64,000 nt of DNA from Nevskia sp. (GCA_043781855.1 JAYWBB010000112.1:16115-80114); one strand, 5' to 3'. Positions 34,455-34,562 are shown, counted from the stretch's first letter. Notes: a model not told the origin generated them from the letters alone. Numbers and translations are program-made.

Positions 34455-34562
34455 AAGTTTCCAGTTTCCAGTTTCCAGTTTCCAGAGGAGCGGGAAAACT
34501 GCGCGCACATGTTTTTGATTTCGCCGTTACTAACAACTGGAAACTGGAAACTGGAAACTGCT
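34455..34562. repeat. Heptad-periodic palindromic element, full copy A (nuoF-nuoG spacer)
   Basis: Four perfect tandem GTTTCCA units (34457-34484) face three TGGAAAC units (34538-34558). This gives a perfect inverted repeat of about 24 nt around a roughly 50-nt centre. The element ends in AACTGGAAACTGC at 34561, 5 nt before the nuoG ATG. Confidence 0.9.

Follow-up and report, generated by a model that had tools for sequence, protein, structure and literature searches.

Heptamer-armed hairpins in the nuo and gcv operons of Nevskia sp.: candidate gene-less members of an intervening-sequence-type element

What are the repeats built from degenerate 7-nt units that lie within the nuo and gcv operons of Nevskia sp., and how might they have come there? 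The stretch of DNA analysed, called the window below, comprises 64,000 nt of one strand (GCA_043781855.1 JAYWBB010000112.1:16115-80114). A preliminary description, made from the sequence alone, had reported four copies (A to D) of such a repeat; all four were found where it had placed them, and their occurrence is far beyond chance. The copies are probably miniature, gene-less members of a selfish element of the intervening sequence (IVS) type that resides in mRNA. Sequence comparison shows that the full element has two inverted arms, of about four 7-nt units each, around a gene of the PF05635 family (23S_rRNA_IVP/bAvd; IVP gene below). In A and B both arms are retained, and their short loops are homologous to each other; C and D are solo right arms. 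The number of units changes by slippage.

The four copies contain six arms, two each in A and B and one each in C and D. On the mRNA strand each arm reads as four YRRMAAC heptamers, with CTTCTC at the inner side and TGCTT at the outer side. The left arm follows a stop codon after 4-8 nt, and the right arm precedes the ATG of nuoG, nuoL or gcvPA by 5-8 nt, without a Shine-Dalgarno (SD) sequence. With at most one mismatch allowed, GTTTCCAGTT occurs 15 times against 1.27 expected; moreover, a 24-nt degenerate arm pattern (AACYNNMMACYRRMAACTGGAAAC) matched exactly the six arms, and shuffled sequences gave 0 matches. The tail CAGAGAAGCC, which had been presented as common to the copies, is present in both C and D, but was rejected as a separate motif since it is not enriched by itself (8 occurrences vs 4.9 expected). 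It is the inner junction of the arm, and pairs with GTCTTC in full elements. The likeness of C and D reported before, 31 of 39 positions, was reproduced by a hand count.

The internal structure of the two full copies also agreed with the preliminary description. In copy A, four perfect GTTTCCA units face three perfect TGGAAAC units and one TAACAAC; the longest perfect complementary run within its 28-nt arms is 25 bp, where a stem of about 24 bp had been estimated. Copy B has perfect 13-nt termini (GCAGTTTCCAGTT and AACTGGAAACTGC), and its 28-nt arms are imperfect, with degenerate heptamers. RNA folding, which had been proposed as a check, gave strong folds for both (A, -52.9 kcal/mol and z = -6.8 against shuffled sequences; B, -57.5 kcal/mol and z = -4.2). 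The claim that all copies share one orientation did not hold: copy A aligns better with the reverse complement of B than with B itself (score 34.5 vs 21.5), which means that A is flipped relative to B, C and D. This match extends through the non-repeat loops, and therefore A and B are two opposite-orientation copies of one composite sequence, that is, one dispersed element and not independent repeats. Likewise, A and the reverse complement of B show terminal inverted repeats and dispersed copies with a homologous interior, as in MITEs (miniature inverted-repeat transposable elements).

The arms also change in length by whole units. In the left arm of B, 14 nt (GCCAGTTGTTAGTT, two heptamers) are absent from three other assemblies of the same species, a loss that is a slippage-type change. 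At least three tandem 7-nt units together with whole-unit length polymorphism are the marks of the heptamer class of simple-sequence repeats (SSR) and short tandemly repeated repetitive (STRR) sequences. Tandem Repeats Finder (TRF) detected period-7 arrays in the window at A and B only. In near-identical metagenome contigs copies A, C and D are identical, save one base of D in one contig.

The evidence that ties these arms to a gene comes from relatives. Homologues of GcvPB and NuoG place the window in the Nevskiaceae of the gammaproteobacteria (Nevskia, Solimonas, Hydrocarboniphaga). In a Nevskia metagenome-assembled genome (L142) and a further contig (L144), arms of the form GCAGTGGC… and …CCACTGCTTC-ATG bracket a PF05635 gene between nuoI and nuoJ (L142, 12664-13115; L144, 13586-14038, where the annotator had called no gene). 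The protein belongs to the TIGR02436 'four helix bundle protein' family, which is distantly related to the Avd protein of diversity-generating retroelements; its closest solved structure is XCC0516 of Xanthomonas (PDB 2gsc, five chains in the entry). The same arrangement was found in other phyla. For example, an Acidobacteriota locus (L020) reads GTTTCTA GTGTCTG GTGTCTA GTTTCCG, IVP gene, …CGGAAAC CAGAAAC TGGAAAC; a Desulfobia locus (L061) reads (GTTTCAA)4, IVP gene, (TCGAAAC)4-5.

A metagenome search with an alignment of five IVP proteins returned 584 relatives, and the counts that follow use the best 80 of the 584. A 28-nt segment with at least 80% 7-nt periodicity lies no more than 130 nt from the gene in 51 of 79 upstream and 45 of 75 downstream flanks, and control periods of 5, 6, 8 and 9 gave 0-4. 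Under a looser rule (at least three period-7 units within 150 nt), arrays are present upstream in 69/80 and downstream in 67/80 loci; among the controls, gene interiors gave 1/80, far flanks 4/68 and shuffled sequence 7/80, with periods 6 and 8 at background. Both arms were recovered at 62 loci, and at 54 of these they are at least 70% complementary, with widely varied unit sequences and a modal length of 4-5 units. The placement is similar to that in the window: in 41 of 58 cases about 6 nt or less part the end of a long upstream open reading frame (ORF) from the left arm, in 41 of 67 the right arm has the start of a downstream ORF at -3 to +33 nt, and the IVP gene starts at a fairly constant 10-40 nt past the left arm. 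Among more distant IVP genes in IMG/VR, about half of 19 have flanking heptamer arrays.

One metagenome contig (L175) carries the window's own unit around an IVP gene. Its left side reads TAG-GTAA (GTTTCCA GTTGCCG GTTTCCA GTTTCCA) GCGAAGAGGC … IVP, and its right side IVP … GTCTTC (TGGAAAC TGGAAAC AGGAAAC TGGAAAC) TGTCCA-ATG; the inner and outer junctions are the same as those of B, C and D. By these comparisons the window copies share architecture, junctions and placement with the arms of IVP-carrying elements. A second informative case is Xanthomonas (L225, L229 and L230, 1415-1885), in which a gene 85-86% identical to the PDB 2gsc sequence, of the XCC0516 type, lies between accB and accC. 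Its left arm is GGGAATC GGGAGTG GAGAATC GGGAATC, and its right arm, ACCCATT CCCCATT CTCGACT CCCTATT CCC-ATG, runs into the ATG of accC. The accB-accC arms are the repeats studied in PMC4692102, a paper that does not mention the link to the IVP gene XCC0516. Our literature search gave no paper linking PF05635 or four-helix-bundle proteins to heptamer repeats, the Coxiella description apart, and none with GTTTCCA repeat strings in a bacterial context. The link between the heptamer hairpin and the PF05635 gene appears not to have been described before.

Comparison of orthologous spacers, also proposed in the preliminary description, showed that A and B are absent from close relatives. The nuoF-nuoG and nuoK-nuoL spacers measure 20 nt and 6 nt in Nevskia ramosa (L143), and both junctions are tight in L142, which carries hairpins at nuoB-nuoCD (double) and nuoCD-nuoE instead. 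Hairpins of like design stand at nuoB-nuoCD, nuoCD-nuoE and nuoK-nuoL in L144; the empty nuoF-nuoG and nuoK-nuoL sites are thus those of L143 and L142. Relative to the sister species, A and B are insertions. The hairpins of L142 and L144 keep the outer ends (GCAG… and …CTGCTTC-ATG), and their units differ (GTGGCTA / TAGCCAC). A similar turnover is seen in the gcv operon. The gcvH-gcvPA spacer of the nearest species (L139) holds a four-unit array with the flanks of copy D and CCAC units, and that of N. soli a full 4+4 hairpin of TAACCAC/TAATCAC units; in Solimonas, (GGGATTC)4-loop-(GAATCCC)4 stands before gcvH and also in frame in gcvPB, at the loop of copy C. Unit sequence therefore varies between species; the architecture is constant. 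The MITE-like reading, which had been offered as one possibility, gained support from the opposite orientations of A and B, the empty orthologous spacers in Nevskia and the gene-carrying relatives.

In two metagenome contigs (L177 and L200) an IVP element was observed at one orthologous site, before a gene whose product starts MPENIGHVIQ. Their units differ (GTTGTCG vs GTTGTCA plus TGGAAAC), which is unit turnover at a fixed site. A Solimonas contig (L141, 4490-4998 and 7043-7183) has a PDDEXK_3 gene between gcvH and gcvPA, and another palindromic repeat (CACGCAACGGCGC…GCGCCGTTGCGTG) there and before gcvPB. A link of PD-(D/E)XK genes to the heptamer loci was rejected, as a tblastn search against 866 kb of heptamer loci gave no match.

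The features of the window are collected in Table 1, with gene assignments by Pfam.

Table 1. Positions of the heptamer elements and of the adjoining genes and codons, counted from the first nucleotide of the window
Feature	Position	Strand	Description
Copy A	34455..34562	+	full gene-less hairpin element; fills nuoF-nuoG spacer
A left arm	34457..34484	+	GTTTCCA x4, then inner junction GAGGAGC
A right arm	34531..34558	+	TAACAAC TGGAAAC TGGAAAC TGGAAAC
nuoF stop codon	34446-34448		upstream of copy A
nuoG ATG	34567		downstream of copy A
Copy B	39704..39832	+	full gene-less hairpin element; fills nuoK-nuoL spacer
B left arm	39707..39734	+	GTTTCCA GTTGTTA GTTGCCA GTTGTTA
B right arm and inner junction	39796..39829	+	CTTCTC TGGAAAC TAACAAC TAGAAAC TGGAAAC
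nuoK stop codon	39697-39699		upstream of copy B
nuoL ATG	39835		downstream of copy B
gcvPB	46941-48458	-	contains copy C
Copy C	47493..47549	-	57-nt block within gcvPB coding sequence; 19 residues where relatives have 3
C single arm	47499-47526	-	mRNA strand TGGAAAC CAGCCAC TGACAAC TGGAAAC, GAAGCCAGCAAAGGCTTCTC ahead of arm
gcvPA	49130-50542	-	ATG at 50540-50542, beside copy D
Copy D	50546..50589	-	solo right arm, gcvH-gcvPA spacer; mRNA strand GCAGTGGCTTCTC TGCCAAC CAACAAC CGGAAAC TGGAAAC CGCTTC-ATG
gcvH	50594-50983	-	stop codon at 50594-50596, beside copy D

The right arm of A is joined to the nuoG ATG by TGCTTCTA, in which no SD is visible, and that of B to the nuoL ATG by TGCTT. A scan for promoters and intrinsic terminators found none at A or B, and there is no U-tract after the stems; a reading of the hairpins as promoters or intrinsic terminators was therefore rejected. 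An Rfam search of the window gave only a glycine riboswitch above the gathering threshold, and no rRNA was found, so that a known RNA family was rejected as well. The riboswitch aptamer (RF00504, 61.7 bits) lies upstream of gcvT at 52230-52322 on the minus strand. Several short-read (Logan) contigs of the same species, L136 and L138 among them, start within A's right arm at 36 nt ahead of nuoG, consistent with a multi-copy or hairpin sequence that breaks assemblies. As to nuoF, its longest ORF (32970-34448) encodes 492 aa; the gene called in identical contigs encodes 434 aa, and position 32970 probably precedes the true start by about 174 nt.

The gcv genes are ordered, on the minus strand, gcvT, gcvH, gcvPA, a redoxin gene and gcvPB. 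The preliminary description had taken all copies to be intergenic, which is correct for A, B and D, all intercistronic; copy C lies inside the gcvPB ORF. Its 39-nt unit is in frame and encodes 13 residues, which align to a gap in the GcvPB of Thermus and are missing from most of 120 Nevskiaceae homologues. GcvPB thus tolerates the copy in frame, within one of its surface loops. This loop follows IPVVGK and is an insertion hot spot. About 35 of the 120 homologues (P0001-P0120) have differing insertions in it, and several of these are translated heptamers: (GGGATTC)n/(GAATCCC)n gives GIRDS…ESRIPNP, for instance, and (ACGCCTC)n gives TPHASRL.

Arrays of this form are widespread in bacteria. The arm pattern was scanned over 185,579 species genomes and returned at least 120 loci, where about 9 chance matches were estimated from the information content of the pattern. 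Among the matches listed are Acidobacteriota, Desulfobacterales, Bacteroidota, Verrucomicrobiota, Planctomycetota, Cyanobacteria and others. The statement that the family is confined to the nuo and gcv operons is true for the 64-kb window, the part of this genome that was searched. In the AAC orientation, an ORF starts within 60 nt downstream of 57 of 160 arrays, mostly at 1-25 nt, against 19 in the reverse control; solo right arms persist beside start codons.

The family had been put forward as unrecognised; however, heptamer arrays near starts, the GGGAATC arrays of Xanthomonas and a heptamer stem in Coxiella were already published, and the heptamer-repeat class is known but unexplained. Heptamers are the commonest long SSRs of bacteria according to Mrazek (2007), as cited in PMC4679880. 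The TAACTGA repeats (MacGregor 2015, PMC4679880) were described from Beggiatoaceae, Cyanobacteria and Bacteroidetes, where 2-6 forward copies precede the start codons of unrelated and essential genes by a few nucleotides and no SD is present. They resemble the window arms in being forward, start-proximal and SD-less, and the register TGATAAC has the xxxxAAC form of TGGAAAC and TAACAAC. Their unit differs from those of the window (TGGAAAC, TAACAAC, TGACAAC and similar), and direct repeats make up nearly all of them, with one inverted set in 170, whereas two of the four window copies are inverted pairs with a loop. That report (PMC4679880) makes no link to an IVP gene. Rehm 2015 (PMC4692102) described GGGAATC / GGGGAYT arrays of Xanthomonas and Nostoc, which lie between co-oriented ORFs near gene ends, sometimes as inverted pairs. 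They are transcribed and vary in length among close relatives; the four units that Xanthomonas favours were ascribed to G-quadruplexes (PMC4692102). The lineage is related (Nevskiales are near Xanthomonadales), and the window arms likewise have four units near the ends of co-oriented ORFs. The cyanobacterial STRR heptanucleotides are tandem and intergenic, with genome-specific units (Mazel 1990; Mrazek 2007; both through citing papers). The window copies share the tandem 7-nt intergenic units with STRR and heptamer SSR; in the descriptions as relayed there, these are plain tandem arrays, to which the hairpin-loop form, the stop/start placement and the IVP link do not belong.

MITEs and the palindromic elements of Rickettsia are short, non-coding, dispersed palindromes that occur in either orientation, vary in presence or absence and can be tolerated as in-frame insertions. 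The window copies are alike in all of these respects: palindromic dispersal, presence or absence in relatives, orientation and in-frame tolerance. Unlike MITEs, the window element has no visible target-site duplication, its termini are internally periodic, and the only associated gene encodes a 120-aa four-helix-bundle protein and not a transposase.

The closest parallel is the IVS of 23S rRNA in Coxiella and Leptospira. In Coxiella burnetii the IVS has a 28-bp terminal stem with three tandem GACAGAT heptamers and a degenerate fourth, the heptamers being present in two or three copies by strain; RNase III was mapped to cut within the stem, where the first repeat begins (Warrier et al., PMC4990558). 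The inverted-repeat stem of about 28 bp is shared with the window elements, as is, in Coxiella, its heptamer make-up, and like the elements of Nevskia relatives the rRNA IVS holds a protein of the S23p/PF05635 family between its arms. The location is different: the IVS lies in an rRNA helix (9, 25 or 45), whereas the window copies, which have lost the ORF, are found in mRNA, in spacers of nuo and gcv and within the coding sequence of gcvPB. Excision by RNase III was shown for the IVS; for the window copies it would follow by analogy.

On the reading of the copies as gene-less IVS-type elements, the arms would pair in the operon transcript into a stem of 24-28 bp. At the base of the stem, no more than about 10 nt would then part the stop codon of nuoF (or nuoK) from the AUG of nuoG (or nuoL), with the insertion of 110-130 nt looped out. 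Such a stem is probably an RNase III substrate, as in Coxiella, and cleavage would then excise the cassette and separate the cistrons, leaving the downstream cistron with a short, A/C-rich, SD-less leader, the right arm. The juxtaposition of stop and start, the cleavage, or both would allow essential operons (nuo, gcv, acc, atp) to tolerate the insertion. The stop-side arm is G/T-rich and the start-side arm A/C-rich, which would fit the need for an unstructured AUG-proximal part once released. A role in RNA processing, which had been suggested for the copies, is plausible by this analogy. The parent element in relatives carries the IVP gene and no known transposase, and among element-encoded products only the IVP protein is a candidate for driving the spread.

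Several observations weigh against this explanation. The cleavage and the translation effects are drawn from Coxiella by analogy only, and efficient cleavage of the in-frame full hairpin in Solimonas gcvPB would destroy the mRNA. Neither a transposition mechanism nor a transposase is evident, and no target-site duplication is visible at A, B or D. A tblastn search of the window found no IVP gene, and the GTTTCCA-armed parent copy was sought in the window only. The 80 IVP loci represent one subfamily, 46-59% identical to the Nevskia protein. Among the 120 heptamer loci listed (8 kb each), an IVP homologue was present in 3, and thus most arrays have no nearby IVP gene. This excess of gene-less arrays would agree with another view, that the hairpins are an independent repeat whose arms are the target of separate selfish IVP genes, which might home into pre-existing hairpin loops. 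Insertion into a loop would also produce the inner junctions common to gene-less and gene-carrying copies. The IVP gene always has one polarity with respect to the neighbouring genes and to the two arms, G/T-rich and A/C-rich, and it stands at a fairly constant distance from the left arm; both features speak for arms owned by the element. Homing therefore seems unlikely to us, and the two models are hard to separate with the present data.

The sense-strand bias near start codons (57 vs 19) and the SD-less starts of nuoG, nuoL and gcvPA would also suit a host signal under selection. The heptamers would then either bind a protein that recognises RNA (S1, Csp or CsrA-like) or act as a landing pad for ribosomes independent of an SD; in UGGAAAC the GGA motifs are similar to CsrA sites. 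A signal of this kind was proposed by MacGregor for the TAACTGA repeats (PMC4679880). However, N. ramosa expresses the same genes without the element, sister species differ in the units at one spacer (TGGAAAC, TGGCCAC, TAACCAC), A and B have opposite orientations, copies also lie within coding sequence, and the right arms of A and B are locked in a stem of about -53 kcal/mol, so that we regard a translation signal as a rather poor candidate. Simple-sequence repeats that arise by slippage in place, neutral, immobile and unrelated to any gene, would account for the two-unit (14-nt) polymorphism in B, and heptamers are the long SSR class expected (Mrazek 2007, as cited in PMC4679880); but a change from a 6-nt spacer to a 129-nt inverted structure is beyond slippage, the loops of A and B are non-repetitive and homologous, and the association with IVP genes and stop/start junctions is strong, which makes slippage improbable as the whole explanation. 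Palindromes between co-oriented genes, with GTGG in the units of relatives as in the head of repetitive extragenic palindromic (REP) sequences, recall REP elements and bacterial interspersed mosaic elements (BIMEs) mobilised by a REP-associated tyrosine transposase (RAYT, Y1 HUH). We consider this very improbable: each arm is an array of heptamers about 28 nt long and not a single imperfect palindrome of 20-40 nt, the window copies lack the GTAG head, the window also has ordinary GC-rich palindromes, which belong to another family, and no RAYT was seen beside any copy, without a systematic search. Scarcely credible, finally, is a G-quadruplex function as proposed for the four-unit preference of Xanthomonas GGGAATC. 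Each arm here has four units too, and UGGAAAC has GG runs; GTTTCCA, TAACAAC and the TAACCAC/TAATCAC units of N. soli, however, keep four units without G-tracts, and TGGAAAC has only GG. The four-unit rule thus needs no G-quadruplex, and this explanation is not general, nor is its rationale applicable to window units that, unlike GGGAATC, are not G-rich.

The difference between the heptamer repeats and ordinary GC-rich REP units, pointed out in the preliminary description, was borne out. A GC-rich palindrome (CCCTTCTCCCTCCGGGAGAAGGG … CCCCTCTCCCGGAGGGAGAGGGG) in the redoxin-gcvPB spacer (window 48470-48580) has the look of an ordinary REP-like unit. At 2931-3007 stands an inverted repeat (CCGGCGAAAGCCGGTATCC … GGATTCCGGCTTTCGCCGG) with a T-run behind it, for which a terminator or a REP-like unit is the probable reading. 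Paralogous genes in tandem probably account for the direct repeats at 236-535, 2000-2589 and 5276-5895 (236-300 nt, 61-75% identity).

More broadly, and only tentatively, heptamer hairpins with a PF05635 gene might form one widespread mobile class that targets operon stop/start junctions and rRNA helices. Its derivatives without the gene or with a solo arm could be the source of the excess of heptanucleotide repeats in bacterial genomes, the STRR, TAACTGA and GGGAATC arrays included, and an Avd-like pentamer of the IVP protein might recognise or propagate the 7-nt units; we hold this possible, and somewhat doubtful. Such a class would offer one frame for the STRR, TAACTGA and GGGAATC arrays, the origin of the 23S rRNA IVS and the role of the very large TIGR02436 family, puzzles that, with the over-representation of 7-nt repeats among them, have been unexplained for one to three decades. 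In this frame a hairpin cassette, whose arms have about four heptamers each and which may or may not hold an IVP gene, stands exactly between one gene's stop codon and the start codon that follows. Cassettes of this kind would divide operon transcripts, take the place of ribosome-binding sites before essential genes, insert peptide loops in enzymes and interrupt assemblies made from short reads, and gene callers sometimes record them as small ORFs.

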